This document shows, in pieces, positions 4,304-64,000 of a stretch of 64,000 nucleotides of DNA. The first letter of the stretch is position 1, and the number at the start of each line of letters is the position of its first letter. The DNA lies in contig OZ024742.1 of assembly GCA_964016885.1 (NCBI GenBank), positions 343,604,001 to 343,668,000 on the forward strand, read 5' to 3'. Both the position numbers and the translations under genes were made by a program. Source of the stretch: Eledone cirrhosa. Taxonomy: Eukaryota. The notes beneath the pieces were generated by a model that saw only the letters and a list, made by a program, of their open reading frames with translations, made no database searches and had not been told where the DNA came from.

Positions 4304-4807
4304 TATATCTATCTATCTGTTTATCTGTCTATCTATCTATCTATGTATCTATCCATCTATACATACATCAGATCTAGCTGTCGTCTGTTCTACAGCGTAG
4401 ATGTAATTCACTTCGCGCAGAAGTTTTGTTCAAATTTATTGCGGAAATTTTGTAAGTTCAATTTTAATTTTGATACTATTGTGTAGCTTGACCCCTCGTC
4501 TGAACTGTCAGGCGGTGGGTCAGCTCATCTTTGCCCCTCCCAGGGGTGAAAAACCTGTTTTTAAAAATTTTGTGGCATAAAAATTCAATCGTCTGACAGA
4601 AATCTTAAACGAAGCTAACGAAAATAATGGTGGCGGGACAGCGGTAAGAGTTGTAAGCCCGCACGCTTTAGTCCCCCCCCTTCCTTCCCAACTAACGTCA
4701 TAGAGAAGGAAAGAAAAAATAAAATAAAAACAGACGAATGTGCGGAGAAAAATGACGAAAACACAAATCTGAACATTGATTCCAACAACAAAAAAAAATT
4801 TGAAAAA

Positions 4808-6504: not shown

Positions 6505-6537
6505 ATCTCTACACTCTCCTTTGGCTTTGCCGCCCAC

Positions 6538-9500: not shown

Positions 9501-9967
9501 CGTTTGAGAGAGGCTCTACAGACACGGGCGCCCGGGCAGGGATCCCTCGAAAAAGATCTGCCCTAGATGCGTGTGTCACGAAGAAACCGTTGCGCACACA
9601 TTGGTGCAATGTAAGGGCGTGGCTGATCTGTGGGGCTACGCTGAACGACTGGGTGGCGCCGATTCGATTGACCGCCGAGTCCGTGATGACAATCAAGCCG
9701 CCTCCCCTCTTCACAAAGGAAGCAAAGGCGTTTTTTCTGTGCGTAATAGCCATGTTGAAAGAGGTTGTTTGGTGGACACGATTGAAAGGTCTGAGGTCAG
9801 GAAACTTCCTCTCTGGCCATAGTCTGGTCTACTTCTTCCGATATCACTTCGGAAGAAGGATAAGAATGGAGAGAGAGGTGCTTGGCCACAGGCAGTTTTA
9901 TGAAAGGTGGGTGATAGTGGCGAGAATGGCTCGTGTAAATGGGCCTTCTCTGTATACCATCCTGTAG
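6538..9967 (+). pseudogene. Tx1 ORF2 (APE-RT-zinc knuckle) with a few in-frame stops
   Basis: MDVLRVGCLNARGL, GDWND, YTDH, KSPGLDG, NFRPITLLN, RQGCPLS, AYADD; ORF pieces 6538-7377, 7429-8982, 8995-9507, 9590-9967. Confidence 0.92.
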
Positions 9968-33450: not shown

Positions 33451-36400
33451 TATGTATGTTAGTATGTATGTGTGTGAGTGTGTGTTTATGTTATGTAACC
33501 TAGCGGTTGGACAAAAAGAGGACGATAAAATAATTACCAGACTTAGATCGACTAAATCAATGTGGTGTTCAAGCATGGCAGCAGTCTAATGTCTGGAACC
33601 AGTAGAAGACTAGATGAATAGTAGGCTACTGTACTGCGTCTGTTACTCTTTATAAACCCACGGATTTGAGAAAATATTTGTCTATTATTCATAGTAGGGT
33701 GAATGACTACATAGGCCATAGGTTCTCTTATTATTTTCAGAATTAAGAAACTCCATGTGCTCGGAAACCTTCTCCCTGGGACACAGATTTCGAAAATAAA
33801 ATCCGTTTTTCTCTTGGACGCACCATTTCAGAGCCTTCTGGTAACATACATACATACATACATACACATACCTACCCACCTACCTACCTACATACATATA
33901 TACACACATACCTACCTACCTACTTACCTACTACCTACCTACCAACATACATAAATACATACATACCTGCATACATACATCCACATATATACTTATCTAC
34001 ATACATACGTAGTCCGTCAACGCGACTAGTCGCATATTTTGGTGTGGGAGACTATTCATTAAATTTAAGATGAATACTATCTCCGACAGTAATGCCACAA
34101 CTACCAGTCATGTTGAATAACTGGATATTCTTCTAACTATATCCACTGAAGACACCTTTTATTCGAATTCGTAGAGATATCCGACCAAATACATAATTCA
34201 TTTTACAAGGATTTGCTACAAACAGCATGGCTGAACACAACATCAAGGAAGTACCGAAGAAAAACAACGAGAAAGGTAAACAAAATTTATTCAGTTGTAG
34301 CTACAGAAGAAACCGAAATTATAAATCGCATTTCTCTTGGAGTTGCGAACTTAATGATGATTTATTTAATTGTTATAAAATGGCAAAAAAACAATCCCTC
34401 CATTGGCTATATGAACAGAATGAAGCTACACTGGGACGAAATACACCCAGAGCTAAATCACTTCACAGCGAAACAATTACGCCAACAAACGACGTTTGTT
34501 GAACGTAAAAATAAGATAAATAGTATTAATTGTAAGTCCCCCACAACAAACATGGAATCAACAACACATGCCTCAGGTCGCCATGCTACTAGAGTTCCTA
34601 GCAGCCAGGTCGAACAGCGCCTTGAAACAACTATGCCTATAAGAAATTTGACACCACCTGTACCATCTAAGTCTACCTCGAATGCTGGGGAAAACACTAT
34701 CGATAATGATAATAATCGAAGAAATTTGACACCACGTGTACCATCCAAGTCTACCTCGACTATTGTGGAAAATACTATCGATAATGATAATAATTGTCTC
34801 TACTTTTGGCACAAGGCCAGCAATTACTGGTACTTGATTTTATCGACCCCGTAAGGATGAAAGGCAAAATTGTCCTCGGCGGGATTTGAACTCAGATCGT
34901 AAAGGGACGTAACTATGCTGGAAAGCATGTCTGACCCTCTATAGCAATAATGCCAATTATAAGGATAATAATCAAGAGTATAAACAATTGAAAATTTCCC
35001 TGAACGAAATCTTCAAGAGAGAAATTAATTCATGTATAAACATTTCTCTTGCTGAACGTATTAAAACGACAATATTTAATAAAAAAAACAAATAATGAAA
35101 TATTACGTGTTATTGGCGAAATAAGCGATGAATATTTACGACGGATAAAATCCCCAACATTTTGGCAAATCAACGCCTGTTTATATGCCTTAGCAACGAC
35201 AGTGAAGCATTATCTTGGTGATAGCAGAGATATTAACAAGAGTAGAACACCACCAAAAATACCATCATATATAACCGCCATAGAAAAAAAGATTTCTGAC
35301 CTACGAAAAACCATAGGATATGTGACAATGCTCCTTACATGCAAACAAACACAAAAAAACCTCACTCCTCACCAACAAAGAGTGAAAAATGAAATAAAGA
35401 CGATGTTTGGTAACAATAGAACTAGAACTCTTCAATATAAGCTGATCACCCTCAAACAAGAATTGAGAGCTGTTAGCGAAAAACGCCGATACCTGAAGAA
35501 GGTGGATGAAAGAAAGGTGCTTAATAAAAGATTCAGACGAAACCAAACATCAGTATATAGAGATATGGAGGGCAAAATAATAAGTGTCACTGAGGCCCCA
35601 TCCCAGAAAGACATAGATTCCTTTTGGAGAAAAATATGGGGTGCAAAGAAGAATTTCAACCAAGATGCAGTGTGGCAAAAAGAAATCCGAAAGAACTATT
35701 GCTCCTACACTACAACAAAAACATACGAAATAAGTGAGGGTACCCTTGAGACTGTGATAGGAAAAGTCCAAGATTAGAAAACACCAGGAAGAGATATGAT
35801 TGCGGCTACTGGTACAACAAACTGATATTCTATCGGAGGTATTTTACTAATCTCTACCAGTTTACTAACCTCTACAAGTTCTTAAGGGAGACACACTTAT
35901 ACCAGAATGGTTGACATCAGCACAAACATTACTGGTACCCAAGAACAAAGACACCCACTTGGCAAAAGAAAACTACCGACCCATTGCATGCCAGAACCTG
36001 ATGTATAAGATGTATAGAGCCTGCCTGAACCTATTCTTCCAAGATCACTGTGAAAATAATAACATCATCACAGATGAACAAGCAGCTGGAAAGAAAGGGG
36101 TTTGGGGATGTGCTGAACAACTTCTAATCAACAAAACTGCGATGTCGGTGGTACGACAACTTAGGAGGAATATGATTACAGTCTGGCTGGACTACAGGAA
36201 AGTTTTCGATTCTGTTCCCCACTCTTGGATGATAGAGGCCCTCCGACTTGCTAAAGTCCCAGACATTATTATCAGAGCCATAAAGAAGATGTCTTCTTCT
36301 TGGGCTACTACGCTAAGGTTAAAGACAGAGAAGGAGGACTCTATTTTCACTGATAAAATAAAAAAATCGCAGGGGTATATTTCAGGGAGACAGTCTCTCT

Positions 36401-37172
36401 GTGATATTATTCATCTTGTCATTAAACCCCTTGTCCTTTCTGCTCAAGAAATGTGAAGGATACATCATTGGCTCACAGGAGGACAGATATACGAACCTAA
36501 CCCATAATTTCTTTGTGCCTGATCTGAAACTCTATGCCAAGACCATGGATGGGATGAAGAAAAATCTTGACCTGGTTACAACGTTCTCAAAGTATATAGG
36601 AATGGAGTTTGGCCAAGATAAATGCTCATATATTACTGGAACGCGGGGGAAAACTACAACCCAATCTAGCAACACTGTCATCAATGGCCTAACTGTTTCA
36701 CCGATATCTGATGAGGACTGCTACAGATAACTGGAGATAGATGAGAATATATCCTATAATGGTATCTGTAATAAGGAACGCGTAACCAGGGAATACTACA
36801 CCCGATTAAGAAAGATTTGGTCATCGGAACTCTCTGCGCAAAACAAAACAGTGGCTCACAGTGTGTTTGCTGTGCCTGTCCTAACACCAACGTTTGGAAT
36901 ATTCAATTGGACGATAGACGAGATCCGAACAGTTGATGTTAGAACTCGAAAAATACTAAACAATACCGGAAACTTCCAGATCAACAGTGACATAGACCGC
37001 CTTTACTTGAAACGTAAGCAGGGAGGCAGTGGCCTAACATCAGACCAGACAACATTTGAATGTCGCATCATATCTCTCCGACAACATCTACGAACCCCGA
37101 AGCGTAGGAGTTCGCTTCTCGAGCAAGTCTATCTGCATGAAACAGATAAGATCATGAGAGTTGGGAAGGAAC

Positions 37173-37376
37173 GGGTCTGCGATAACAGGTCTGTGATGCC
37201 CTTAGATGTCCGGGGCCGCACGCGCGCTACACTGGAGGTATCAGCGGGCGCCACTCCCCCGGCCCGAGAGGGTCGGGAAACCTCTGAACCACCTCCCGTG
37301 ATAGGGATCGGGGCCTGGAACCAACCCCGTGAACGAGGAATTCCCGGTAAGCGCGGGTCATCAGCCCGCGTCGATC

Positions 37377-37419
<43 letters not shown>

Positions 37420-37620
37420 CGAACGGTCCGGTAAGGTCCTCGGATCTGGCCGACGAGTTCGCAGGCCGTGCGGCGGCGTTTCGAGTCGGCCGTCAGGTCG
37501 GTTCGTTGCCGTCGTCGGTGCGCTCTCTGATGGCCCGGAGAAGACGACCGAACCCGATCGCTTAGAGGAAGTAAAAGTCGTAACAAGGTTACCGTAGGTG
37601 AACCTGCGGAAGGATCATTA
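37173..37620 (+). rRNA. 18S rRNA 3'-terminal fragment (about 450 nt), pseudogenic insert
   Basis: Universal motifs ataacaggtctgtgatgcccttagatg, ccctgccctttgtacacaccgcccgtcgct and gtaaaagtcgtaacaaggtt.ccgtaggtgaacctgcggaaggatcatta. Confidence 0.97.
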
Positions 37621-37975
37621 CCGCGTATCTATCGTTTATCGTTTATCGCCGCCGCCGCCGCCAACGAAAGCCGCCTTTTTTTCGTTGATCTTCGGTGATC
37701 ACGACAACAACGGTCGGGTTCGTCATCTGCCGCCGCCTAGCGGACGGCGTAACCCGTTAAATGGAGCGAGCGCCGTTTGCGAAATCGCCGCCAACATCGC
37801 TTACTTCGCGTCTACCGCCGCCTAACCGCTCCTACCGTTTTTTTTCTCTTTTTCTTTCGAAAGAAGGAAAAATTAAAAGAAATCTTTTGCCGGCGCCAGC
37901 ACGGCGCTCGGCCGATAACATCGCGCATCGTTCGATTTCGTATCCGAAAGAACGTTTTTTTCGACGTGCGCTTCT
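37621..37975 (+). other. Probable ITS1 5' part contiguous with the 18S fragment
   Basis: GC/CpG-rich non-coding sequence directly after ggatcatta; no 5.8S reached. Confidence 0.75.
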
Positions 37976-39915
37976 CATTTGAATGTCGCATCATATCCCC
38001 CCGACAACATCTACGAACCTCGAAGCGTAGGAGCCCGCCTCTGGAGCAAGTCTATCGGCATGAAACAGATAAGATCATGAGAGTTGGGAAGGAACACCTC
38101 GAGAAATATTCCGTGTGATAATCAAAAACTCACACCCAGAAAAGTTGCTCAGCAGCATCGCAGTGAATCCATGGATGAAAAACTGCATGATTATCAGCAA
38201 AACATCATGCATGGATATGTTGCCAGGAAGCTCCAGAGTGAAAGTAATATAGATAAGGAAAGTAGTCTATCTTGGACCAACAACCGCTATATTGGCTCCC
38301 ACTTTGAAGGATATGCTTTTGCAATCCAAGAACAGGAAATTAACACGAAATACCTGATTCACAACAGAGACAGGGATGCAGGCAAAACACCTAGATGTGA
38401 TAAAAAATGCAGACTCTGCAGAATTAACTTGGAAGATGTCACCCATGTCACCAGCAGCTGTCCAAAGATGTCATCGCGGTAATATCTACCTATGAGGCAT
38501 GATGTAGTGGCCAAAACACTGTACAATGCAATCTGTAAAAAAGATAGCCCCGATAATAAACACATTAAAAGCTACAGCAATGTGGAAGACATCGATATAC
38601 ATAATATGAAAGAACACTGGTGGAATGTTCCAGTAAAAACCCCAATAAAATGCAGGCATAACAGACCAGATATTATGATATGGGACAGGGAGAAGAAAGC
38701 ATGCACAGTAGAGGAAATTAGTTGCCCAGCAGATGCCAATATAATATCAAAGATTAGCGAAAAGGAGAATACTTATGCAGAATTGATGAGAAATCTGCAG
38801 ATACTCCACCCTGATTACACCTTCAGATTTATGCCTGTGATTATTGGGGCACTGGGATATGTTAGTAACTGCCTCAATAAAAATCTTGAGAAACTGGGCT
38901 TCACAGGAACAGAAAGAACACAACTAGTTAGGAAATTACAAGTACAATCCATTAATGGAACAGTAAAATATGCAAAGCATTCCAAAAATTTTGCATCTAA
39001 TAACTGCATATACACATGTACAGATACAAAGCATATACACATGCACACATACAACTCAAAACATCCACATCCACACATACAATAACATCAATATCTACAC
39101 ATACATGCATGTAGGCATGCATACATAATCTACCTAGTTGATGTTGTGACAACAACTGGGGGCCTTTCACTCCTAGGTAAATTAAAAAAAGTACCATTTG
39201 GATGGCCGTTGACTCTGCTGAGTTCCTCCGCCCTTTGCCGGGTCTTGTATTTCATCCTGTGTTCAAATATCACCCTCCTCACCAAGCAAGCTTGGTGGGG
39301 TTGCTGGTTTAGTCGCCGACGACTCGACCATTAGACAGGTTGTACTGGGTTACATGTTACATGTTACATACATGCACACTTACATACATACACACATATA
39401 CACTCTAATATATATATATTAGATATTACTGTATTTTCTTTTACCCAAAGCCAGAAACTTCTTAGCACCCTCTCGTACAATACTCGCTTCGTTGGGTCTA
39501 ATTAATTGTTTTTGCTTTAGGCACAAGGCCAGCAATTATCTCAGTGCATTACTGGTACTTTATTTTATCGACCCCATAAGGATGAAAGACAAATTTAACC
39601 TCGGCGGTTAACGTCCATTTACAGATGATGAAATGGCTTAGTCGTTAGGACGTCAATTACCACGCTTTTGTAGTATACATTCTGACGTTCTGAGTTCGAA
39701 TCCCACCAACGTCAAATCTACCTCTTCATTTTTTTTGTACTTGTTTGTATGGATTTTTTTTAAGTTTTTCTTTGTTTCTTTCTTGCGGGAAGAAATCGGC
39801 TACGGTAATCTTGGAAAGGGATGGATGCTTTCAGGTTTAAAATCTCCTAGACGACAACCTAAACAATCCATTAGGATCGTAAATATTTAAAACTACAACA
39901 ACAAAAACAACTTAC

Positions 39916-42995: not shown

Positions 42996-45900
42996 TTCTT
43001 CTGGTTTTATAATTTTATAAATTTTTACTAATGGAGAGTCGGTTTCTAACATAGATAGAAGACTCTCTCATTGGAATTTACACAACATCAACTAGGTAGA
43101 TATGTCTGCATGTCTGCATGCATGCATGTGTAGGTATGGATGTTATTGTATGCATGGATGTGTATCTTTTGAGTTATATGTGTGCATATGCATATGTTTT
43201 GTATCTGTACATGTGTATATGCAGTTATTAGATGCAGACTGTTTGAAATGTTTTACATATTTTTACTGTTCCATTAATGGATTGTACTTGTAATTTCCTA
43301 ACTAGTATTATTTCTGTTTCTGTGAAACCTAGCTTCTCAAGATTTGTACTGAGGCAGTTACTCACATAACCTACTGCCCCAATAATCACAGGTATAAATC
43401 TGAAAGTATAGTCAGGGTGGAGTATCTGCAGATTTCTCATCAGTTCTGCATAGATATTCTCCTTTTCGCTAATCTTTGATATTATATAGGCATCTGCTGG
43501 GCAGCTAATTTCCACTACAGTGCATGCCTCCTTTTCCCTGTCCCATATCATACTATCTGGTCTGTTTTGCTTGCATTTTATTGGGGTTTTGACTGGAACA
43601 TTCCACAGTACTCTTTTATATTATGTATGTATATGTCTTCCACATTGTTGTAGCCTTTAATGTATTTATTGTTGGGGCTATCTTTTCTACGGATTGCATT
43701 GTACAGTGTTTTGGCCACTACATCATGCCTCATAAGTAGATAGTACCGCGATGACATCTTTGGAAAGCAGCTGATGACATGGGTGACATCTTCGATGTTA
43801 ATTCTGCAGAGTCTGCACTTGTTATCACATCTAGGTGTTTTCCCTATCTCTTTTGTGAATCAGGTATGAATTGGTCCAAGATAGACTACTTTGTTTATCT
43901 ATATTACTCTCACTCTGGAGCTTCCTGGCAACAAATCCATGCATAACATTTTGCTGATAAGCGTGCAGTTTTTCATCCATGGATTCACTGCGGTACTCCT
44001 GGGCAATTTCCCTGGGTTTGAGTTTTTGATTATCGTGCTGGGCGTATCTTTCAAGGAGTTCCTCCCCAACTCTCATGATCTTATCTGTCTCATGCAGATA
44101 GACTTGCTAAATAGATGGGCTCCTACGTTTGGAGGTTCGTAAATATTGTCGGAGGGATATGATGCGACATTCAAATGCTGTCTGGACTGATGTTAGGCTT
44201 CTGCCTCCCTCTTTACGTTTCAAGTAGAGGCGGTCTATGTCACTGTTGATGTGGAAGTTTCCGGTGTTGTTTAGTATTTTTCGAGTTCTAACATCAATTG
44301 ATCGGATTTCATGTATCGCCAATCGAGTATTCCAAACACTGATGTTATGACAGGCACAGCAAACACATTGTGAGTCATTGTTTTATCGTGCGCAGAGAGT
44401 TCCAATGACCACATTTTTCTTAATCGGGTGTAGTATTCCCCGGTTACGTGTTCCTTATTACAAATACCATTATAGGATATATTTTCATCTATCCCCAGGT
44501 ATCTGTAGCAGTCCTCATCAGATATCGGTGAAATAGCTAGGCTATTGATAAAAATGTTACTAGATTGGGTTGTCGTTTTCCCCACTTTACAATCATATAT
44601 GAACATTTATCTTGGCCAAACTCCATTCCTATATCCTTTGAGAATGTTGTAACCAGGTCAAGATTTTTCTTCACCCCATTTATGCTCTTGGCATAATTTC
44701 ACATCATCCACAAAGAAATTATGGGTTACGTTCGTATTTCTGTCCTCATGTGAGCCAATGATGTATCCTTCACATTTCTTGAGCAGAAGGCACAAGGGGT
44801 TTAATGACAGGATGAATAATATCACCGAGAGACTGTCTCCCTGAAATATACTCTTGTGATATTCTTTTTTTATCAGTGAAAATAGAGTCCTCCTCTGTTT
44901 TTAACTTTATGATAATAGTCCAAGAAGAAGACATCTTCTTTATGGCTCTGATAATAATGTCTGGGACTTTAGCGAGTCGGAGGGCCTCTATCATCGAAGA
45001 GTGGGGAACAGAATCGAAAGCTTTCCTGTAGTCCAGCCAGACTGTAGACATATTCCTCCTACGTTGGTATACCTCTGACATCGAAGTTTTGTTGATTAAT
45101 AGTTGTTCAGCACATCCCCAAACCCCTTTCTTTCCAGCTGCTTGTTCATCTGTGATGATGTTATTATTTTCACAGTGATCTTGGAGAGATAGGTTCAGGC
45201 AGACTGTATACATCTTATACATCAGGTTCTGGCATGTAATGGGTCGGTACTTTTTTTCCAAGTGGGTGTATTTGTTCTTGGGTACCAGTAATGTTTGTGT
45301 TAATGCCAACCATTGCGATACATATGTATCTCTCTTGAGAGTTTGTTGGTAGAGGTCGATAAGATACATCCGATAGAATATCATTTTTTTGTACCAGCAA
45401 CCGACAATTATGTCTCTTCCTGGTGTTTTCTTATTTTGGAGGTTTTCTATCACAATCTCAAGGGTATCCTCATTTATTTCGTATGCTTTTGTTGTAGTGT
45501 AGGATCAATAGTTCTTTTGAATTTCTTTTATCCACACTGCATCTTGGTTGAAATTTTTATTTTCATCCCATATTTTTCTCCAAAAGGAATCTATGTCTTT
45601 CTGGGATGGGGCTTCAGTGACATTTATTATTTTGCCCTTCATATCTCCATAGACTGATGTTTGGTTTTGTCTGAATCTTTTATTAAGCACTTTTCTTTCA
45701 TCTACCCTCTTCAGGTATCGGTGTTTCTCGCTGACAGCTCTCAATTCTTGTTTGAGGCTGATCAGTTTATATTGAAGAGTTCTAGATCTATTGTTACCAA
45801 ACATCGTCTCTATTTCATTTTTCACTCTTTGTTGGTGAGGAGTGATGTTTTTTTGTTTTTGTTTGCATGTAAGGAGCATTGTCACATATCCTATGGGTTT

Positions 45901-46530
45901 TCGTAGGTCAGCAATCTTTTTTTTTCTATTGTAGTTATATAAGCTGGTATTTTTGGTGGTGTTTTCTTCTTGTTAATAACTCTGCTATAACCAAGATAAT
46001 GCTTCACTATCGTTGCTAGGGCATATAAACAGGCGTTGATTTGCCAAAATGTGGGGAATTTAATTCATCGAAAATATTCAAACCCTATTTTGTCAATAGC
46101 ACATAAGATTTCATTATTTGGTTTTATTTTATTAAATATTGTTGTTTTATTACGTTCAGCAAGAAAAATATTTTTACATTCTCTCTGGAAGATTTCGTTG
46201 AGGGAAATTTTCAAATGTTTATACTTTTGATTATTATTATCAATAGTGATAATAATAATCTATTGATAAAAATGTTGCTAGATTGGGTTGTCGTTTTCCC
46301 CACTTTACAATCATATATGAACATTTATCTTGGCCAAACTCCATTCCTATATCCGAGGTTGACTTTGCCTTTCATCCTTACGGGGTCGATAAAATAAAGT
46401 ACCAGTAATGTACTGGTTAATTGCTGGCCTTGTGCCTAAAGTAGAAACAATTATTATTATCAATAGTGTTTTCCACAACATTCGAGAAAAGAGTCAGATG
46501 GTAATCGTGGTTTCAAATTTCTTACCGGCA
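42996..46530 (-). mobile_element. R4/Dong-like RLE LINE, same family as 34008-39148, decayed
   Basis: Collinear ORF pieces 45505-45885, 44770-45453 and 43228-43551; 3' end ccagaagaa followed by (CATA)n. Confidence 0.92.
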
Positions 46531-46557: not shown

Positions 46558-47716
46558 GTCGGGTCACTCTTGAGTGCTATTGGTAACATGTAACCCAGTA
46601 CAACCTGTCACATAGTCGGGTCGTCGGCGACTAAACCGGCAACCCCACCAAATTTACTTGGTGAGGAGGGTGATTTAGGATACCCTGCAAGACAAAGAAA
46701 CAAAACCTGACAAAGGGCGGAAGAACTCATAAGAATCAACGGCCATCCGAAAGTGTGTAAATATGTATATGCACATGTACATATGTATGTATATGTATAT
46801 ATACATGGGTGCATGTGTATGTATATACGCGGGGACATAGAAATAATCGGGTTGGACACCCGATCACGCGGTTAAACCACTGGGAGTGAAGGACCCCTAG
46901 CCTTTGTCAGGGCATTCTTCTAGGAGAAGGCAACTCAAGAAACTGGGATAACTCCGATATAAAACCAGCTGCTCAGTAGTTACCGATGATGTTGATCTTT
47001 TCTTTTCGGGTTATATCTACTGTCGCTCAGAGAGTGGGATTGGCTCAGTGCACAGTCTTTTCTCACTTTAAAAAACATCTTCATGCACAGGCATTGCACA
47101 ATAGAATTAATTAATAATTATTAATAGTGTTATATCGTGCAATGGCCATACCCGAGGACGAGGGGGCAGCCATCATGTATGTATGTATGTCGAGTCACTC
47201 TTGAGGGCTAATGGTAACCCAGTACAATCTGTCGCATGGTCAGGTCGTCAGCAACTAAACTGGCAACCCCACCAAGTTTATTTGGTGAGGAGGGTGATTT
47301 TGGACGCCCCGCAGGACAAAAAACAAAACCTGACAAAGGGCGGAAGAACTCATAAGAGTAAACGGCCATCCGAAAGTGTGTAAATATGTATATACACATG
47401 TACCGCGTGGTTAAACCACTGGGAGTGAAGGCCCCTAGCCTTTGTCTGGGCATTCTTCTAGGAGAAGGCAACTCAGGAAACTGGGATAACTCCGACATAA
47501 AACCTGCAGCTCAGTAGTTACCGATGATGTTGATCTTTTCTTCTTTTCGGGTTATAGCGACTGTCGCTCAGAGAATGTGACTGGCTCAGTGCGCAGTCTT
47601 TCCTCACTTTAAAAAAATCTTCACGCTCAGGCATTGGACGATAGCATTAATTGGTAATTATTAATAATGTTATATTGTGCAATGGCCATACTCGATAACG
47701 CGGGGGCAGCCATCAT
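46558..47716 (+). mobile_element. Two tandem copies of the RTE-derived non-coding retroposon
   Basis: 46558-47176 and 47189-47716 are homologous; each ends in the ggcagccatc hairpin followed by (ATGT)n. Confidence 0.7.
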
Positions 47717-47733
47717 GTATGTATGTATGTATG

Positions 47734-50508
47734 TTCTTCTGGTTTTATAATTTCACAAAGTTTTACCAATAGAGAGAGAGAGTGGGTTTCTAACATAGGC
47801 ACAAGACTCTCTCATTGGAATTTACACAACATCAACTAGGTAGATATGTATGGATGTCTGCATGCATGCATGCATGTGTGTTTTGAGTTGTATGTGTGCA
47901 TGTGTATATGCTTTGTATCTGTACATGTGTATATGCAGTTATTAGATGCAACATTTTTGGAATGTTTTACATATTTTTACTGTTCCATTAATGGATTGTA
48001 CTTTTAATTTCCTAACTAGTTGTGTTCTTTCTGTTCCTGTGAAGCCTAGCTTCTCAAGATTTGTATTGAGGCAGTTACTAACATATCCCAGTGCCCCAAT
48101 AATCACAGGCATAAATCTGAAGGTGTAATCAGGGTGGAGTATCTGCAGCTTTCTCATCAGTTCTGCATAAATATTCTCCTTTTCACTAATCTTTGATATT
48201 ATATTGGCATCTGCTGGGCAGCTAATTTCCACTATAGTGCATGTTTTCTTCTCCCTGTCCCATATCATAATATCTGGTCTGTTATGCCTGCATTTTATTG
48301 TTGTTTTTACTGGAACATTCCACCAGTATTTTTCATATTATGTATCTGGATGTCTTCCACATTGTTGTAGCTTTTAATGTGTTTATTATCGGGGCTATCT
48401 TTTTTACCAACTGCATTGTACAGTGTTTTGGCCACTACATCATGCCTTATAGGTAGATAGTACCGCGATGACATCTTTGGGCAGCTGCTGATGACATGGG
48501 TGATATCCTCGATGTTAGTTCTGCAGAGTCTGCACTTGTTATCACATCTAGGTGTTTTGCCTGCATCCCTATCTCTTTTGTGAATCAGGTATTTCGTGCT
48601 AATCTCCTGTTCTTGGATTGCAAAAGCGTATCCTTCAAAGTGGGAGCCAATATAGCGGTTGTTGGTCCAAGATAGACTACTTTCCTTATCTATATTACTC
48701 TCACTCTGGAGCTTCCTGGCAACATATCCATGCATGATTTTTTGCTGATAGGCATGCAGTTTTTCATCCATGGATTCACTGCGATACTGCTGAGCGACAT
48801 CCCTGGGTGTGAGTTTTGTATTATCACATAGGGAATATCTCTCAAGGAGTTCCTTCTCAACTCTCATGATCTTATCTGTTTCATGCAGATAGACTTGCTC
48901 GAGAGACGGGCTCCTACGCTTCGAGGTTCGTAGATGTTGTCGGAGAGATATGATGCGACATTCAAATGTTGTCTGGTCTGATGTTAGACCTCTGCCTCCC
49001 TGCTTACGTTTCAAGTAAAGGCGGTCTATGTCACTGTTGGTCTGGAAGTTTCCGGTGTTGTTCAGTATTTTTCGAGTTCCAACATCAACTGCTCGGATTT
49101 CGTCTATCGTCCAATTGAGTATTCCAAACGTTGGTGTTAGGACAGGCACAGCAAACACATTGTGAGCCACTGTTTTGTTTTGTGCAGAGAGTTCCGATGA
49201 CCAGATCTTTCTTAATCGGGTGTAGTATTCCCTGGTTACGCGTTCTTTATTACAGATACTATTATAGGATATGTTCTCATCTATCCCCAGGTATCTGTAG
49301 CAGTCCTCGTCAGATATTGGTGAAACAGTTAGGCCATTGATACAAATGTTGCTAGATTGGGTTGTAGTTTTCTTCTGCTTTACAGTCATGTATGAGCATT
49401 TATCTTGGCCAAACTCCATTCCTATATCCTTTGAGAATGTTGTAACCAGGTCAAGTTTTTTCTTCATCCCATCCATGTTCTTGGCATAGAGTTTCAGATC
49501 GTCCACAAAGAAGTTATGGGTTAGGTTCTTATTTCTGTCCTCCTGTGAGCCAATGATGTATCCCTCACATTTCTTGAGCAGAAAGGACAAGATGTTTAAT
49601 GACAAGATGAACAATATCACAGAGAGACTGTCCCCCTGAAATATACCCCTGCAATATTTTATTTTATCAGTGAAAATAGAGTCCTCCCTCTCTGTCTTTA
49701 ACCTTAGGATAGTAGCCCAAGAAGAAGATAGCCTCTCTATGGCTCTGACAATAATGTCTGGAACTTTAGAAAGTCGGAGGGCCTCTATCATCGAAGAGTG
49801 GGGAACAGAATCGAAAGCTTTCTTGTAGTCCAGCCAGACTGTAGTCATATTCCTCCTAAGTTGTCGCACCTCCGACATCGCAGTTTTGTTGATTAGGAGT
49901 TGTTCAACACATCCCCAAACCCTTTTCTTTCCAGCTGCTTGTTCATCTGTGATCATGTTATTATTTTCACAGTGATCTTGGAGGAATAGGTTCAGGCAGA
50001 CTGTATACATCTTATACATCAGGTTCTGGCATGCAATGGGTCGGTAGTTTTTTGCCAAGTGGGTGTCTTTGTTCTTGGGGACCAGTAACATTTGTGCTAA
50101 TGTCAACCATTCTGGTATAAGTGTATCTCCCTTAAGAACTTGTTGGTAGAGGTCAGTAAGATTCCTCCGATAGAATATTAGTTTTTTGTACCTGTAGCCG
50201 ACAATCATGTCTCTTCCTGGTGTTTTCTAATCTTGGAGTTTTCCTATCACAGTCTCAAGGGTCCCCTCAATTATTTCGTATGTTTTTGTTGTAGTGTAGG
50301 AGCAATAGTTCTTTCGGATTTCTCTTAGCCACACTGCATCTTGGTTGAAATTCTTCTTTTCACCCCATATTTTTCTCCAAAAGAATCTATGTCTTTCTGG
50401 GATGGGGCCTCAGTCACACTTAATATTTTGCCCTTCATATCTCTATAGACTGATGTTTGGTTTCGTCTGAATCTTTTATTAAGCATTTTTCTCTCATCTA
50501 CCTTCTTC
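47734..50508 (-). mobile_element. R4/Dong-like RLE LINE, 5'-truncated, best-preserved copy
   Basis: 633-aa ORF 48307-50208 with GIFQGDSLS, FFVDDLKLY, CRLC..HVISSC and RHD; RLE tail in 47942-48268; (TATG)n on both sides. Confidence 0.93.
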
Positions 50509-50589: not shown

Positions 50590-51198
50590 TAAGTCAGGTC
50601 ACCAGTTGGTGCTACTGGTAACATGTATCCCAGTACAACCTGTCTCATGGTCGGGTCGTTGGCGACTAAACTGGCAACCCCACCAAGGTTTCTTGGTGAG
50701 GAGGGTGACTTTAGACATCCTGCAGGACTAAAAACAAAACCTGTCAAAGGGCAAAGGACCTCTTAAGAGTCAATGGCCATCCCAAATCACCGAGAGATGA
50801 CCCCTTAGCCTTTGTCAAGGCAGAATTCTAGGAGAAGAAAACTCTGATATAACACCTGCAACCCTGATGGTATCCAATGATGTTGACTTGTTCTTCTTTT
50901 TGGTAGATATCATCTTGGTTAAGAGAGTGGGACTGGCTTTGTGCAGTGCCTTTGCTCACTATAAAAGCTTCACGGCACAGGCATTGCTTTAAATCTGGAG
51001 ATCTCTCTGCACTTGTCGTCACATGGTACCATGGGCCCAGCACTATGTGTCACTAATTGTCACAAGTTTAGTGTTTGTACCAGAGTTTTCAAGTCGCAGA
51101 CTGGACTAAAGAGTCACACTCGTTCAGCGCAACGGTAGGGGTTCTCCTACATCGATATATAGTAGTGGCCGTACTCGAAAACGAGTTGGCAGCCACCA
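50590..51198 (+). mobile_element. RTE-derived non-coding retroposon
   Basis: Inverted close copy of 28149-28760, flanked by (TATG)n. Confidence 0.7.
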
Positions 51199-53712: not shown

Positions 53713-54677
53713 GTAAGAGTGTCAGACACCATGAGTTGCGGCCCTTTACGGTCTGAGTTAAGACAATTAAAAATCTTTACCACCATCAATTGTTAAAAAC
53801 AAGTTAAAATCATGTAGTCGTCCATTCATAACGTACGTTACGCTTTAGTTACATACACACACATCTACAGGTAAATACATAAACAGATGCAGACAACAGA
53901 AGTGCAAACCCACACGTACATCTACTCATACATATTCATAAATATACACATTATAGAAAATAATTATTACATACCCACACATCGATGTAATGATTGAAAA
54001 AGGGGCTGGTGAAAGGCGATAGCGATATGTGTGTTGGGTCTCTTTAGGGTTACAGGCTACATAGCCTATTCCTATTATACATTGGGACAACTTTATCCCA
54101 GTAGTATCCACATTCTTCAATATGATTAACAATAACAATAAAAATATGAAAAATAATTACTTATTACTACATTATGATAAATATTGGAAAAAAGAATTCA
54201 GCAGAATGTAAACTTTGTTTTGGGATATCTATATCACAATGGAGGAGGAAAATTAGGGAGAGGTGTGGGTACACTGTATCGAATGTTTTGTGATATTCGT
54301 CCCAGCTTTCTGCGCCGTAAGATCATATCCAACTGAGGTTGCCTTTCCCTTTCATCCTTCCAAGGTCGATAAAAGAAGTACCGGTTTAGTATCGGGATCG
54401 ATTCTTTTTTTATATCACTTTCCAAACACCCCCCACACACTCTGAAAGAACTTGGCTGTGCGCTCCATCAGGTTTAAAATGCCCAAGATACGCAGTATGT
54501 CCCTATGATGCTCCTTAATTTCTATCAGGAGTTACGGATCCATATATACCAGAACATCTTAAAAAGTGTTAAGGGAAAGAATAAAAACTTGCGTTGTCAT
54601 TTCCAAAGGGACATAAATGAAGTGAAGTGAAGTGGTTTCAAGTGGAAGAGTAAGAAAAAGGTGTGTGGCAAAGTAGG

Positions 54678-57600
54678 ATATAGACACAGTATGATGTGAT
54701 ATACAGAGATAAAATCACAGTATGGTGTAATATAATGGGATACACCCACAGTATGGTGTGAAAAACTAGGATATAGTCAAAGTATAGTGTGATAAACTGA
54801 GATACACTCACAGTATGGTGTGGTGTTCTGAGATACAGTCACAGTATGGTGTGATATACTGAGATACAGTCACAGTATAGTGTGATAAACTGAGATACAC
54901 TCACAGTATGGTGTGAGATACTGAGATACACTCACAGTATGGTGTGATAAATTAGGATATAGTTACAGTATGGTGTTAATCACTGAGATACAGTCACAGT
55001 ATGGTGTGATATAGTGAGATACACCCACAGTATGGTGTGATATACTGAGATACAGTCACAGTATGGTGTGATATACTGAGATACTGTCACAGTATGGTGT
55101 GATATACTGAGATACAGTCACAGTATGGTGTGGTATACTGAGATACTGTCACAGTATGGTGTGGTACACTGAGATACAGTCACAGTATGGTGTGATATAC
55201 TGAGATACAGTCACAGTATGGTGTGGTATACTGAGATTCTGTCACAGTATGGTGTGATATACTGAGATACTGTCACAGTATGGTATGGTATACTGAGATA
55301 CAGTCACAGTATGGTGTGATATACTGAGATACAGTCACAGTATGGTGTAGTATACTGAGATACAGTCACAGTATGGTATGATATACTGAGATACACCCAC
55401 AGTATGGTGTGGTATACTGAGATACAGTCACAGTATGGTGTGGTATACTGAGATACAGTCACAGTATGGTGTGGTATACTGAGATAACGCCACAGTATGG
55501 TGTGGTATACTGAGATAGAGTCACAGTATGGTGTGGTATACTGAGATACAGTCACAGTATAGTGTGGTATACTGAGATACAGTCACAGTATGGTATGATA
55601 TACTGAGATACAGTCACAGTATGGTATGATATACTGAGATACACCCACAGTATGGTGTGGTATACTGAGATACAGTCACAGTATGGTGTGGTATACTGAG
55701 ATACAGTCACAGTATGGTGTGGTATACTGAGATAACCCCACAGTATGGTGTGGTATACTGAGATAGAGTCAGAGTATGGTGTGGTATACTGAGATACAGT
55801 CACAGTATGGTGTGGTATACTGAGATACAGTCACAGTATGGTGTGGTATACTGAGATAACCCCACAGTATGGTGTGATATACTGAGATACAGTCACAGTA
55901 TGGTGTGGTATACTGAGATACAGTCACAGTATGGTGTGGTATACTGAGATACAGTCACAGTATGGTGTGGTATACTGAGATACAGTCACAGTATGGTGTG
56001 GTATACTGAGATACAGTCACAGTATGGTATGATATACTGACATACACCCACAGTATGATGTGGTATACTGAGATAGTCACAGTATGGTGTGGTATACTGA
56101 GATACAGTCACATTATGGTGTGATATACTGAGATACAGTCACAGTATGGTATGATATACTGACATACACCCACAGTATGGTGTGGTATACTGAGATAGTC
56201 ACAGTATGGTGTGGTATACTGAGATACAGTCACAGTATGGTGTGGTATACTGAGATACAGTCACAGTATGGTGTGGTATACTGAGATACAGTCACAGTAT
56301 GGTGTGGTATACTGAGATACAGTCACACTATGGTGTGATATACTGAGATACAGTCACAGTATGGTATGATATACTGAGATACAGTCACAGTATGGTATGT
56401 TATACTGAGATACACCCACAGTATAGTGTGGTATACTGAGATACAGTCACAGTATGGTGTGGTATACTGAGATACAGTCACAGTATGGTGTGGTATACTG
56501 AGATAACCCCACAGTATGGTGTGATATACTAAGATACAGTCACAGTATGGTGTGATATACTGTGATACAGTCACAGTATGGTGTGGTATACTGAGATACA
56601 GTCACAGTATGGTGTGGTATACTGAGATAACCCCACAGTATGGTGTGATATACTGAGATACAGTCACAGTATGGTGTGGTATACTGAGATACAGTCACAG
56701 GATTGTGTGATATACAGAGATACAGTCAGAGTATGGTGTGATATACTGAGATACAGTCACAGTATGGTGTGGTATACTGAGATACAGTCACAGTATGGTG
56801 TGGTATACTGAGATACAGTCACAGTATGGTGTGGTATACTGAGATACAGGCACAGTATGGTGTGGTATACTGAGATAACCCCACAGTATGGTGTGATATA
56901 CTGAGATACAGTCACAGTATGGTGTGGTATACTGAGATACAGTCACAGTATGGTGTGGTATACTGAGATACAGTCACAGTATGGTGTGGTATACTGAGAT
57001 ACAGTCACAGTATGGTGTGGTATACTGAGATAACCCCACAGTATGGTGTGATATACTGAGATACAGTCACAGTATGGTGTGGTATACTGAGATACAGTCA
57101 CAGTATGGTGTGGTATACTGAGATACAGTCACAGTATGGTGTGGTATACTGAGATACAGTCACAGTATGGTGTGGTATACTGAGATAACCCCACAGTATG
57201 GTGTGATATACTGAGATACAGTCACAGTATGCTGTGGTATACTGAGATACAGTCACAGTATGGTGTGGTATACTGAGATACAGTCACAGTATGGTGTGGT
57301 ATACTGAGATACAGTCACAGTATGGTGTGGTATACTGAGATAACCCCACAGTATGGTGTGATATACTGAGATACAGTCACAGTATGGTGTGGTATACTGA
57401 GATACAGTCACAGTATGGTGTGGTACACTGAGATACAGTCACAGTATGGTGTGGTATACTGAGATACAGTCACAGTATGGTGTGATATACTGAGATACAG
57501 TCACAGTATGGTGTGGTATACTGAGATACAGTCACAGTATGGTATGATATACTGACATACACCCACAGTATGATGTGGTATACTGAGATAGTCACAGTAT

Positions 57601-60600
57601 GGTGTGGTATACTGAGATACAGTCACAGTATGGTGTGGTATACTGAGATACAGTCACAGTATGGTGTGGTATACTGAGATACTGTCACAGTATGGTGTGG
57701 TATACTGAGATACAGTCACAGTATGGTGTGATATACTGAGATACAGTCACAGTATGGTATGATATACTGAGATACACCCACAGTATGGTGTGGTATACTG
57801 AGATACAGTCACAGTATGGTGTGGTATACTGAGATACAGTCACAGTATGGTGTGGTATACTAAGATAACCCCACAGTATGGTGTGATATACTAAGATACA
57901 GTCACAGTATGGTGTGATATACTGTGATACAGTCACAGTATGGTGTGGTATACTGAGATACAGTCACAGTATGGTGTGGTATACTGAGATAACCCCACAG
58001 TATGGTGTGATATACTGAGATACAGTCACAGTATGGTGTGGTATACTGAGATACAGTCACAGGATTGTGTGATATACAGAGATACAGTCACAGTATGGTG
58101 TGGTATACTGAGATACAGTCACAGTATGGTGTGATATACTGAGATACAGTCACAGAATGGTGTGAGATACTGAGATACAGTCACAGTATGGTGTGATATA
58201 CTGTGATACAGTCACAGTATGGTGTGGTACACTGAGATACACTCACAGTATGGTGTGATATACTGAGATACAGTCACAGTAAGGTGTGCTATACTGAGAT
58301 ACACCCACAGTATGATGTGGTACACTGAGATACAGTCACAGTATGGTGTGGTATACTGAGATACAGTCACAGTATGGTGTGGTATACTGAGATACAGTCA
58401 CAGTATGGTGTGATATACTGAGATACAGTCACAGTATGGTGTGGTATACTGAGATACAGTCACAGTATGGTATGATATACTGACATACACCCACAGTATG
58501 ATGTGGTATACTGAGATAGTCACAGTATGGTGTGGTATACTGAGATACAGTCACAGTATGGTGTGGTATACTGAGATACAGTCACAGTATGGTGTGGTAT
58601 ACTGAGATACAGTCACAGTATGGTGTGGTATACTGAGATACTGTCACAGTATGGTGTGGTATACTGAGATACAGTCACAGTATGGTGTGATATACTGAGA
58701 TACAGTCACAGTATGGTATGATATACTGAGATACAGTCACAGTATGGTATGATATACTGAGATACACCCACAGTATGGTGTGGTATACTGAGATACAGTC
58801 ACAGTATGGTGTGGTATACTGAGATACAGTCACAGTATGGTGTGGTATACTAAGATAACCCCACAGTATGGTGTGATATACTAAGATACAGTCACAGTAT
58901 GGTGTGATATACTGTGATACAGTCACAGTATGGTGTGGTATACTGAGATACAGTCACAGTATGGTGTGGTATACTGAGATAACCCCACAGTATGGTGTGA
59001 TATACTGAGATACAGTCACAGTATGGTGTGGTATACTGAGATACAGTCACAGGATTGTGTGATATACAGAGATACAGTCACAGTATGGTGTGGTATACTG
59101 AGATACAGTCACAGTATGGTGTGATATACTGAGATACAGTCACAGAATGGTGTGAGATACTGAGATACAGTCACAGTATGGTGTGATATACTGAGATACA
59201 GTCACAGTATGGTGTGGTACACTGAGATACACTCACAGTATGGTGTGATATACTGAGATACAGTCACAGTAAGGTGTGCTATACTGAGATACACCCACAG
59301 TATGGTGTGGTACACTGAGATACAGTCACAGTATGGTGTGGTATACTGAGATACAGTCACAGTATGGTGTGGTATACTGAGATACAGTCACAGTATGGTG
59401 TGGTATACTGAGATACAATCACAGTATGGTGTGAGATACTGAGATACAGTCACAGTATGGTGTGGTATACTGAGATACAGTCACAGTATGGTGTGAGATA
59501 CTGAGATACAGTCACAGTATGGTGTGATATACTGAGATACAGTCACAGTATGGTGTGGTACACTGAGATACACTCACAGTATGGTGTAGTACACTGAGAT
59601 ACAGTCACAGTATGGTGTGAGATACTGTGATACAGTCACAGTATGGTGTGATATACTGAGATACACCCACAGTATGGTGTGATATATTGAGACACAGTCA
59701 CAGTATGGTATGATATACTGAGATACACCCACAGTATGGTGTGATATACTGAGATACACCCACAGTATGGTGTCGTATACTGAGATACAGTGATAGTATG
59801 GTGTGGTTTACTGAGATACAGTCACAGTAAGGTGTGATATACTGATATACACCCACAGTATTGTATGGTATACTGAGATACAGTCACAGTATGGTGTGAT
59901 ATACTGAGATACAGTCACAGTATGGTGTGGTATACTGAGATACAGTCACAGTATGGTGTGATATACTGAGATACAGTCACAGTATGGTGTGGTATACTGA
60001 GATACAGTCACAGTATGGTGAGATATACTGAGATACAGTGATAGTATGGTGTGGCTTATTGAGATACAGTCACAGTAAGGTGTGGTTTACTGAGATACAG
60101 TCACAGTATGGTGTGGTATACTGAGATACAGTCACAGTATGGTGTGGTATACTGAGATACAGTCACATTACGGTGTGATAAACTAAGATATAGTTACAGT
60201 ATGGTGTTAATCACTGAGATACACTCACAGTATTGTGTGATATACTGAGATACACCCACAGTATGGTGTGGTATACTGAGATACACTCACAGTATGGTGT
60301 TAGATACTGAGATACACTCACAGTATGATGTGATATACTGAGATACACTCACAGTATGGTGTGGTATACTGAGATACAGTCACAGAATGGTGTCGTATTC
60401 TGAGATACAGTCACAGTATGAAGTGGTATACTGAGATACCCCCACAGTAGGGTGTGATATACTGAGATACAGTCACAGTATGGTGTAATATACTGAGATT
60501 CAGTCACAGTATGGTGTGAGATACTGAGATACAGTCACAGTATGGTGTGGTATACTGAGATACAGTCACAGTATGGTGTGGTACACTGAGATACAGTCAC

Positions 60601-63600
60601 AGTATGGTATGGTACTCTGAGATACAGTCAGAGTATGGTGTGGTATACTGAGATACAGTCACAGTATGGTGTGAGATACTGAGATACAGTCACAGTATGG
60701 TGTGATATACTGAGATACAGTCATAGTATGGTGTGGTACACTGAGATACAGTCACAGTATGGTGTGGTACACTGAGATACAGTCACAGTATGGTGTGATA
60801 TATTGAGATACTGTCACAGTATGGTGTGATATACTGAGATACAGTCACAGTATGGTGTGGTATACTGAGATACACCCACAGTATGGTGTGGTCTACTGAG
60901 ATACAGTCACAGTATGGTGTGGTATACTGAGATACAGTCACAGTATGGTGTGATATATTGAGATACTGTCACAGTATGGTGTGGTATACTGAGATACAGT
61001 CACAATATAGTGTAGTACACTGAGATATACCCACAGTATGGTGTGGTTTACTGAGATACAGTCACAGTATGGTGTGGTTTACTGAGATACACTCACAGTA
61101 TGTTGTGGTATAATGAGATACAGTCACAGTATGGTGTGGTACACTGAGATACAGTCACAGTATGGTGTGGTACACTGCGATATAGTCACAGTATGGTGTG
61201 GTTTACTGAGATACAGTCACACTATGGTGTGATATACTGAGATACACCCACAGTATGGTGTGGTATACTGAGATACAGTCACAGTATGATGTGGTACACT
61301 GAGATACAGTCACAGCATGGAGTGGTACACTGAGATACAGTCACAGTATGGTGTGATAAACTGAGATACACTCACAGTATGGTGTGAGATACTGAGATAC
61401 AGTCACAGTATGTTGTGGTATACTGAGATACAGTCACATTACGGTGTGATAAACTAAGATATAGTTACAGTATGGTGTTAATCACTGAGATACACTCACA
61501 GTATGGTGTGATATACTGAGATACACCCACAGTATGGTGTGGTATACTGAGATACACTCACAGTATGGTGTTAGATACTGAGATACACTCAGAGTATGAT
61601 GTGATATACTGAGATACACTCACAGTATGGTGTGGTATACTGAGATACATTCAGAGTATGGTGTGGTATACTGAGATACAGTCACAGTATGGTGTGGTAT
61701 ACTGAGATACAGTCACAATATGGTGTGATATACTGAGACACAGTCACAGTATGGTGTAATATACTGAGATACAGTCACAGTATGGTGTGAGATACTGAGA
61801 TACAGTCACAGTATGGTGTGGTATACTGAGATACAGTCACAGTATGGTGTGGTATACTGAGATACAGTCACAGTATGGTGTGAGATACTGAGATACAATC
61901 ACAGTATGGTGTGAGATACTGAGATACAGTAACAGTATGGTGTGGTACACTGATATACAGTCAGAGTATGGTATGGTACTCTGAGATACAGTCAGAGTAT
62001 GGTGTGGTATACTGAGATACAGTCACAGTATGGTGTGAGATACTGAGATACAGTCACAGTATGGTGTGATATACTGAGATACAGTCACAGTATGGTGTGG
62101 TATACTGAGATACCGTCACAGTATGGTGTGAGATACTGAGATACAGTCACAGTATGGTGTGGTATACTGAGATACAGTTACAGTATGGTGTAGTACACTG
62201 AGATACAGTCACAGTATGGTGTGGTACACTGAGATACAGTCACAGTATGGTGTGATATATATAGAGATACTGTCACATTATGGTGTGATATACTGAGATA
62301 CAGTCACAGTATGGTGTGGTATACTGAGATACACCCACAGTATGGTGTGGTCTACTGAGATACAGTCACAGTATGGTGTGGTATACTGAGATACAGTCAC
62401 ACTATGGTGTGATATATTGAGATACTGTCACAGTATGGTGTGGTATACTGAGATACAGTCACAATATAGTGTGGTACACTGAGATACACCCACAGTATGG
62501 TGTGGTTTACTGAGATACAGTCACAGTATGGTGTGGTTTACTGAGATACACTCACAGTATGTTGTGGTATAATGAGATACAGTCACACTATGGTGTGGTA
62601 CACTGAGATACAGTCACAATATGGTGTGGTATACTGAGATACCCCAACAGTATGGTGTGATATACTGAGATACAGTCACAGTATGGTGTGTTATACTGAG
62701 ATACAGTCACAGTATGGTGTGGTATACTGAGATACAGTCACAATATGGTGTGATATACTGAGATACAGTCACAGTATGGTGTGAGATATTGAGATACAGT
62801 CACAGTAAGGTGTGGCTTACTGAGATACAGTCACAGTATGGTGTGATATACTGAGATACACCCATAGTATGGTGTGGTACACTGAGATACAGTCACAGTA
62901 TGGTGTGAGATACTGAGATACAGTCAGAGTATGGTGTGGTATACTGAGATACAGTCACATTATGGTGTGGTATACTGAGATACAGTAACAGGATGATGTG
63001 GTATACTGAGATACAGTCACAGTATGGTGTGGTACACTGAGATACAGTCACAGTATGGTGTGGTACACTGCGATACAGTCACAGTATGGTGTGGTTTACT
63101 GAGATACAGTCACACTATGGTGTGGTATACTGAGATACACCCACAGTATGGTGTGGTATACTGAGATACAGTCACAGTATGGTGTGGTACACTGAGATAC
63201 AGTCACAGCATGGTGTGGTACACTGAGATACAGTCACAGTATGGTGTGGTATACTGAGATACAGTCACAGTATGGTGTGGTATACTGAGATACAGTCACA
63301 GTATGGTGTGGTACACTGAGATACAGTCACAGTATGGTGTTGTATACTGAGATACAGTCACAGTATGGTGTGATATAGTGAGATACACCCACAGTATGGT
63401 GTGATATACTGAGATACACCCACAGTATGGTGTGATATACTGAGATACAGTCACAGTATGGTGTGATACACTGAGATACGGTCACAGTATGGTGTGGTAC
63501 ACTGAGATACAGTCACAGTATGGTGTGGTTTACTGAGATACAGTCAAAGTATGGTGTGATATACTGAGATACAGTCACAGTCTGGTGTGATATACTGAGA

Positions 63601-64000
63601 TACACCCACAGTATGGTGTGGTAGACTGAGATACAGTCACAGTAAGGTGTGATATACTGAGATACAGTCACAGTCTGGTGTGATATACTGAGATACACCC
63701 ACAGTATGGTGTGGTATACTGAGAAACAGTCACAGTATGGTGTGGTACACTGAGATACAGTCACAGTATCGTGTGATATATTGAGATACAGTTAGAATAT
63801 GGTGTGGTATACTAAGATACAGTCACAGTATGGTGTGATATACTGAGATACACCCAGAGTATTGTATGGTATACTGAGATACAGTCACAGTATGGTTTGA
63901 TATACTGAGATACAGTCACAGTATGGTGTGGTTTACTGAGATACAGTCTCAGTATGGTGTGTTATACTGAGATACAGTTACAGTATGGTGTGGTACACTG
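54678..64000. repeat. 31-bp tandem satellite (tactgagatacagtcacagtatggtgtggta), about 300 units, runs past the window end
   Basis: Direct periodicity, a degenerate left edge and recurring variant blocks. Confidence 0.98.

Follow-up and report, generated by a model that had tools for sequence, protein, structure and literature searches.

An old, decayed LINE copy in the window (the whole 64,000 nt stretch of Eledone cirrhosa DNA analysed here) carries a younger patch at nt 37053–37975, consisting of 120 nt of LINE sequence from a different, young subfamily, a 6 nt filler and 797 nt of host 18S–ITS1 sequence. The patch was probably written by a single, later reverse-transcription event copying RNA (probability about 0.6), likely with the LINE's own enzyme. 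The locus is a single dead LINE copy, with no sign of function or spread, and is not a new mobile element. It is a datable fossil of one rare insertion.

The first-pass annotation had described an 803 bp interruption (nt 37173–37975) between two 120 bp LINE segments, and this anatomy is real in the assembly. All parts lie on the forward strand. The 5′ flank is a CATA-type microsatellite (nt 33846–34008), recognised by its sequence and by the flanks of family copies, and is the usual target of this LINE family. It is followed by the decayed left part of the resident LINE (nt 34009–37052, the 5′ start being approximate), identified by a match to RVT_1 and placed in an old subfamily by its diagnostic sites. 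The left 120 bp segment (nt 37053–37172) has young-subfamily alleles and belongs to the later patch. Next come the filler (nt 37173–37178), a near-repeat of the adjoining 18S sequence that looks like a locally templated slip, the 3′ 442 nt of host 18S rRNA (nt 37179–37620; Rfam RF01960 and alignment to rDNA units of the same genome), and the first 355 nt of an ITS1 of about 548 nt, in an older variant (nt 37621–37975; alignment to the same units). The right part of the resident LINE (nt 37976–39148), also of the old subfamily by its diagnostic sites, begins with CATTT and holds the right 120 bp segment (nt 37976–38095). The 18S had been correctly recognised, but its start is at nt 37179 rather than nt 37173, the intervening filler being absent from rDNA units. 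What had been called probable ITS1 is indeed ITS1, ending about 194 nt before the 5.8S gene (2296 versus 2491 in the coordinates of rDNA locus L002). The rRNA sequence is in the same sense as the LINE ORF, the Rfam match to eukaryotic SSU rRNA being on the plus strand, which is that of the reverse transcriptase (RT) frames.

Two sister LINE copies on the minus strand align straight through the insertion site and lack the insert, as had been noted. One (nt 42996–46530, by alignment) is old-type, with 6.8% private divergence; the other (nt 47734–50508, by alignment and translations) has an RT, a CCHC knuckle and a PD..E-type endonuclease motif, and provided the coordinate frame for the LINE alignments. 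Within the first of these, nt 46260–46354 are identical at 94 of 95 positions to the copy's own nt 44542–44636, and at most 92.6% identical to 87 other family matches, indicating a recent, local, self-templated patch. A SINE-like block occurs in an AAT-rich stretch at the same LINE position in the interrupted element (about nt 34795–34958) and in this sister copy (about nt 46353–46460); it is absent from the other family copies covering that site, and reflects either shared descent or a hot spot. A 78 nt tandem repeat in the N-terminal region of the LINE (nt 34641–34796) has both of its units matched by other family copies. The resident element lacks the last 90 nt or so of the family 3′ end, and from nt 39149 another repeat takes its place; this repeat is also found at nt 46643–46751, 47267–47374 and 50678–50785.

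The chimera occurs once. Its right junction (33 nt, allowing up to two mismatches) has a single match in the 3.0 Gb assembly (1796 contigs), so the search for further copies sharing the junctions, which the first-pass annotation had proposed, indicates that the chimera has not been amplified. When the whole region was used as a query against the genome, this locus alone covered it, and the others were rDNA or LINE alone (best 40 of 1970 candidates). An rRNA-derived SINE or amplified composite element would be present in multiple copies with shared junctions, and none were found in the 3.0 Gb assembly, among the best 40 of 1970 candidates or among all 24 of the ITS1 candidates. A shared 803 bp mobile unit was also rejected: many matches end at common query positions only because the rDNA of the query stops there.

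The RT domain of the LINE matches Pfam RVT_1 with E = 8e-24, and the top five PDB sequences for the sister-copy RT are R2 or R2-like proteins. In the sister-copy translations a CCHC knuckle followed by a PD..E endonuclease motif can be seen by eye at the C-terminus; a CCHC knuckle with a PD..D/E motif is the signature of the R2-group, restriction-like endonuclease (RLE). CAT follows 76 of the 87 exact family 3′ ends, and the 5′ truncations of family copies mostly abut CATA repeats. With all three membership features present, the family is, as judged from its sequence, an R2-group (RLE) non-LTR retrotransposon with a sequence-specific target, in agreement with the earlier assignment. A homolog search for a clade name gave none assigned to a clade among the 120 matches listed. 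Dong-R4 families have been reported in octopus in the available text of two papers (PMC13282606, PMC9115989), and the features of the present family would fit them. Family copies were the best 30 matches of each of four queries, which is not a random sample. Self matches and same-locus or tandem duplicates were left out before counting (L031 and 11 loci in the divergence set; 10 duplicate loci for the counts of family 3′ ends, flanks and internal inserts).

The insert derives from host pre-rRNA or rDNA, as had been supposed, since it aligns to the genome's own 18S–ITS1–5.8S–28S units; this also rules out a contaminant or symbiont 18S. Five rDNA loci were scanned, and all carry 18S and 5.8S (four also 28S). 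The 18S part has four substitutions over 435 columns relative to the majority of 22 own-genome rDNA loci, three of them private, and the ITS1 part has three private substitutions over 344 columns relative to 18 loci, four truncated loci being left out of the ITS1 count. The ITS1 belongs to an older variant, marked by a block of about 33 nt that tandem array-type units lack, and therefore was not refreshed by the present rDNA arrays. The identity of the insert to other assembled rDNA is 94% at most (best 40 of 1970 candidates), and that of its ITS1 at most 90% (24 ITS1 candidates). The 120 bp piece is not native ITS1, because in rDNA units other sequence continues on both sides.

The suggestion that nt 37975 marks an ITS1 processing site is not borne out. 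All 24 ITS1 candidates were scored for their end points, and none of the 23 besides this locus ends at that base, the nearest stopping 14 nt short; at this end the sequence briefly matches the target. To our knowledge, pre-rRNA cleavage sites have not been mapped in this animal. Internal priming would account for the ITS1 end without a cleavage site, and the presence of ITS1 would point to a precursor before processing only for an RNA template. Elsewhere in the genome (G000), tandemly spaced rDNA units lie at 25.07–25.17 Mb of C12, 22.1–23.0 Mb of C25 and 352.07–352.15 Mb of C4; these are probably what is left of arrays. The genome contains at least two ITS1 types, with and without the block of about 33 nt. 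Among dispersed pieces, L025 (G000:C28, about 80.90 Mb) is a 290 nt 18S fragment between perfect inverted repeats of at least 43 nt, and L023 and L027 are fold-back 18S fragments.

The two 120 bp segments differ at exactly 8 of 120 positions, as the first-pass annotation had estimated; its view that one copy had been duplicated did not hold, as the segments come from two subfamily haplotypes. Old and young groups were defined by sites outside the 120 bp segment. Of nine diagnostic sites in the left part of the LINE (nt 36416 to 36958), eight carry the old allele, as do 13 of 14 in the right part. The left segment has the young allele at all four of its sites (nt 37052, 37075, 37115 and 37116). 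None of 30 old-type copies has this four-site haplotype, and for 23 of them the duplicated segment played no role in the choice. Among copies far from the left part it is present in 28 of 32, a share that is inflated, as many of these were chosen with the left segment. Runs of four young alleles are absent from all 30 old-type copies. The old-type loci L062, L064, L074 and L117 have scattered runs of two or three, and are subfamily mosaics. The possibility that the left and right LINE parts belong to different subfamilies found no support: both are old-type (their rank correlation, 0.77, falls among the values for intact copies), and the left 120 bp alone differs. Two details count against so simple a picture: the young segment has three non-majority bases in 120 (two of them adjacent) where 1–1.4 would be expected at the age of the insert, and a single young allele occurs in each of the old parts (nt 36416 and nt 38038, the second also present in L065). 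The apparent 120 bp target duplication is a patch from a different subfamily, and serves as a warning about long duplications inside repeats.

The insert and the LINE around it are of different ages. Relative to 110 family copies, the LINE halves have 78 private substitutions over 2800 columns (2.8%), 48 over 1659 in the left part and 30 over 1141 in the right; the resident left part (nt 34009–37052) has 46 over 1539. The insert has six over 779 columns (0.8%). The difference in decay is significant (Fisher p = 4e-4), also for the 18S alone (p = 0.007). Of the private coding changes in the LINE, 15 of 66 are synonymous, where 24–28% are expected, and three are stops; among family polymorphisms, 28 of 51 are synonymous. 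The private changes of the LINE are neutral, i.e., they are decay in place. Unsampled variation of the source copy was considered and ruled out, as the changes are neutral and include the stops and six private indels. Had the insert entered with the LINE, about 22–24 private substitutions would be expected, and six are seen (P = 7e-5; for the 18S part alone, P = 0.002–0.007), a comparison that assumes similar mutation rates in the GC-rich insert and the LINE (class-corrected expectation, 23.8). Other rDNA-derived fragments in the genome reach 4–5% decay. Young-type LINE copies have a median private divergence of 1.1–1.2%, close to the 0.8% of the insert, and four private changes at nt 36964–37044 carry the old-type decay right up to the break. 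Given the two levels of decay and the young left segment, the 120 nt of young LINE and the rRNA sequence entered an older resident copy later. The haplotype and age patterns together indicate that this copy once ran directly from about nt 37052 to nt 37976, and that the later patch is nt 37053–37975.

At the right junction the target reads CATTT where ITS1 continues with TATTT, so that a primer ending there would pair at four bases and a G-U wobble. CAT makes up 2.2% of positions in the LINE body, and follows the insert just as it follows most family 3′ ends; the CAT at the break was noticed after the fact. At the left junction, nt 37170–37183 repeat nt 37184–37197 at 12 of 14 bases (the next best of 240 placements matches at 8 of 14; chance about 0.004). 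The near-repeat reads as a 14 nt slip that created a three-base match to the LINE end. The anchor for such a slip is a match at four of five bases if synthesis ran from right to left and one base if it ran from left to right, which favours the direction of reverse transcription.

The anatomy, the two subfamily haplotypes, the two ages and the single copy are observed; the RNA template, the enzyme and the sequence of steps are deduced from them. In the favoured history the patch was copied from RNA, probably as follows. The family endonuclease, or another break, would open the resident copy at 37975|37976, before CAT. The exposed end would pair with the near-matching five-base ITS1 stretch in unprocessed pre-rRNA and prime cDNA synthesis, internally and without a tail. 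The RT would proceed through 355 nt of ITS1 and then 442 nt of 18S before slipping back by 14 nt on this template, which would give it the three-base match to LINE RNA. A single jump would then take it to an RNA from the young subfamily active at the time, at a point 120 nt downstream of where the break would fall in that RNA. Finally, an extended stretch of homology would let the cDNA anneal to the resident copy's left end, so that the joint is invisible. The signs that point to RNA are the shared sense, the confinement of the insert to a transcribed unit, the CAT after it, the short match between ITS1 and target, and the direction favoured by the slip. The RT template jump of the first-pass annotation is kept as probable, as one jump. 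Each step has precedent in the available text of the papers cited: R2 RT jumps between RNAs (PMC12203849), a heteroduplex of cDNA and target gives precise 5′ joints (PMC3774820, PMC2718515), tailless retropseudogenes prime internally through target complementarity (PMC5322556), and LINE RNA patches breaks together with other RNAs (PMC1920257). Singly, all of these steps are known from R2 or L1; their combination in this order was not found in the literature consulted, mainly open-licence texts. Against this history, a free jump would come down so close to the homologous position (120 nt or less) only by a coincidence of about 5–10%; an RNA tethered to the resident copy would explain it. Microhomology and templated filler are also described as signatures of polymerase theta repair (PMC2895639). 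A clear target duplication was not found at ten other dispersed rDNA fragments examined; the long inverted flanks of one of these ten and the fold-back structure of two look like the work of DNA repair.

The main alternative, possible though doubtful, is that DNA repair completed the same two-step history, with the two ends of a break in the old copy each contributing to the patch. On the left, the end would have invaded a young genomic LINE copy and taken 120 nt from it before SDSA was aborted. On the right, either 797 nt of rDNA would have been copied or an rDNA fragment captured, and polymerase theta-type joining with templated filler would have sealed the two. The start of the young segment at the break then needs no coincidence, the filler and microhomologies fit, and both end joining after aborted SDSA (PMC2895639) and templated insertions (PMC11724301) are described in the accessible text of those papers. 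DNA-type patching has also left traces in this genome, in the 95 nt self-copied patch of the sister copy and the fold-back rDNA fragments. However, repair requires different donors at the two ends, and the sense, the confinement to a transcribed unit, the donor of a then-active subfamily and the CAT at the break all become coincidences. The first-pass annotation had instead proposed a single target-primed event at the insertion of the LINE, switching from LINE RNA to pre-rRNA and back, which would explain the shared sense. The eight segment differences fit two tracts each decayed by about 2.8%, and the left and right parts are of the same old subfamily. This co-insertion is very improbable, because decay in the insert is lower than in the LINE by a factor of about 3.5 (P = 7e-5), its old ITS1 variant excludes a refresh from present arrays, and the left segment alone is young-type, which would need a third switch or later conversion.

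Long target duplications occur in some non-LTR elements, such as R9 (about 126 bp), and a retroposed or captured rRNA fragment flanked by a true 120 bp target-site duplication of one resident copy would have a parallel there. Late duplication of one copy would leave about two differences, and eight are seen (P = 7e-4); the segments have no non-majority base in common and belong to different family haplotypes, so that this origin, hardly credible, is refuted unless a later conversion is added. Overlaps at the seven internal inserts in 109 family loci are also 24 nt or less. An assembly or library chimera would be expected at a single locus, as seen here, but is highly unlikely: there is no assembled donor (the identity limits given above, from the best 40 of 1970 candidates, apply), and the joints show templated filler, microhomology and a coherent pattern of haplotype and age. 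Of 22 public sequencing runs listed, 21 contain part of the stretch, with at most a 0.44 share of the sampled words, which speaks neither for nor against a chimera.

If the patch was copied from RNA, its closest relatives are the primate rRNA/LINE-1 chimeric insertions (28S/L1, 5S/L1 and U6/L1; bioRxiv 10.1101/2025.02.02.635956), in which, as far as the text of that preprint goes, an rRNA fragment likewise lies in sense with a LINE by inferred template switch or ligation, at single dead loci. In the primate chimeras the foreign RNA is 5′ of the LINE 3′ end and a target duplication surrounds the whole, whereas here the rRNA would have been copied first and the LINE second. The present insert includes ITS1, is 797 nt long and would be the work of an RLE-type enzyme; the primate chimeras are 50–482 nt, and the main text does not mention ITS1, 18S or pre-rRNA. 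As in the U6/L1 type, foreign RNA lies in sense, with the insert and young segment of similar age, a likeness that holds for the patch only and not for the whole element; unlike that type, the order in the patch is LINE then rRNA, there is no LINE 3′ end, and the 120 bp segments come from two sources.

Tailless retropseudogenes (PMC5322556) are similar in having no tail and a 3′ end set by target complementarity to an internal stretch of RNA, matching the tailless right end seen here, with its short match of ITS1 TATTT to target CATTT. In the sections available, they are made by L1, primed at A-rich sites and flanked by short target duplications, and rRNA sources are rare (two 18S, ten 28S). 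The present locus differs in its U-rich ITS1 site and second template, there is no short flanking target duplication, and the 5′ joint would have formed by homology. That joint resembles the 5′ joining of R2 and R1, where, in the available descriptions, cDNA homologous to the upstream target anneals and gives a precise joint (PMC3774820, PMC2718515); the homology in R2/R1 is 9–36 nt of 28S carried on the transcript, while here the element's own body matches a resident copy. Endonuclease-independent L1 insertions (PMC1920257) also combine LINE and other cellular RNA to patch a break, with microhomology at both ends, and 3 of 21 lie in a pre-existing L1. According to the accessible text, most of them delete target sequence and depart from the endonuclease motif; here there is no visible target loss, and the site resembles the family junction. 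Aborted SDSA with theta end joining (PMC2895639, PMC11724301), as described there, shares a homology-started tract, templated filler and insertions from several donors, but would carry no bias towards sense orientation, transcribed donors or the active subfamily.

Should the RNA-copied history be true, the locus would show that, in vivo, an R4/Dong-like enzyme primed on pre-rRNA before its processing, jumped to a second template and closed the 5′ joint through homology. A wider conjecture, which is unlikely, is that internal CAT sites in older genomic copies of this microsatellite-targeting LINE are nicked by the element itself, which then fills them with RNA-copied sequence and completes the 5′ end via homology. 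The rRNA piece would then be a rare tag, untagged events would leave seamless mosaics of old and young sequence, and RT-driven conversion of resident copies would be a source of subfamily mosaicism.

Elsewhere in the window, APE-type LINE frames (Exo_endo_phos, RVT_1 and zf-RVT) lie near its start (nt 2825–9507), and a repeat with a 31 nt period begins at about nt 54630, with a strongly G-skewed stretch that extends to the window end (nt 54600–64000).
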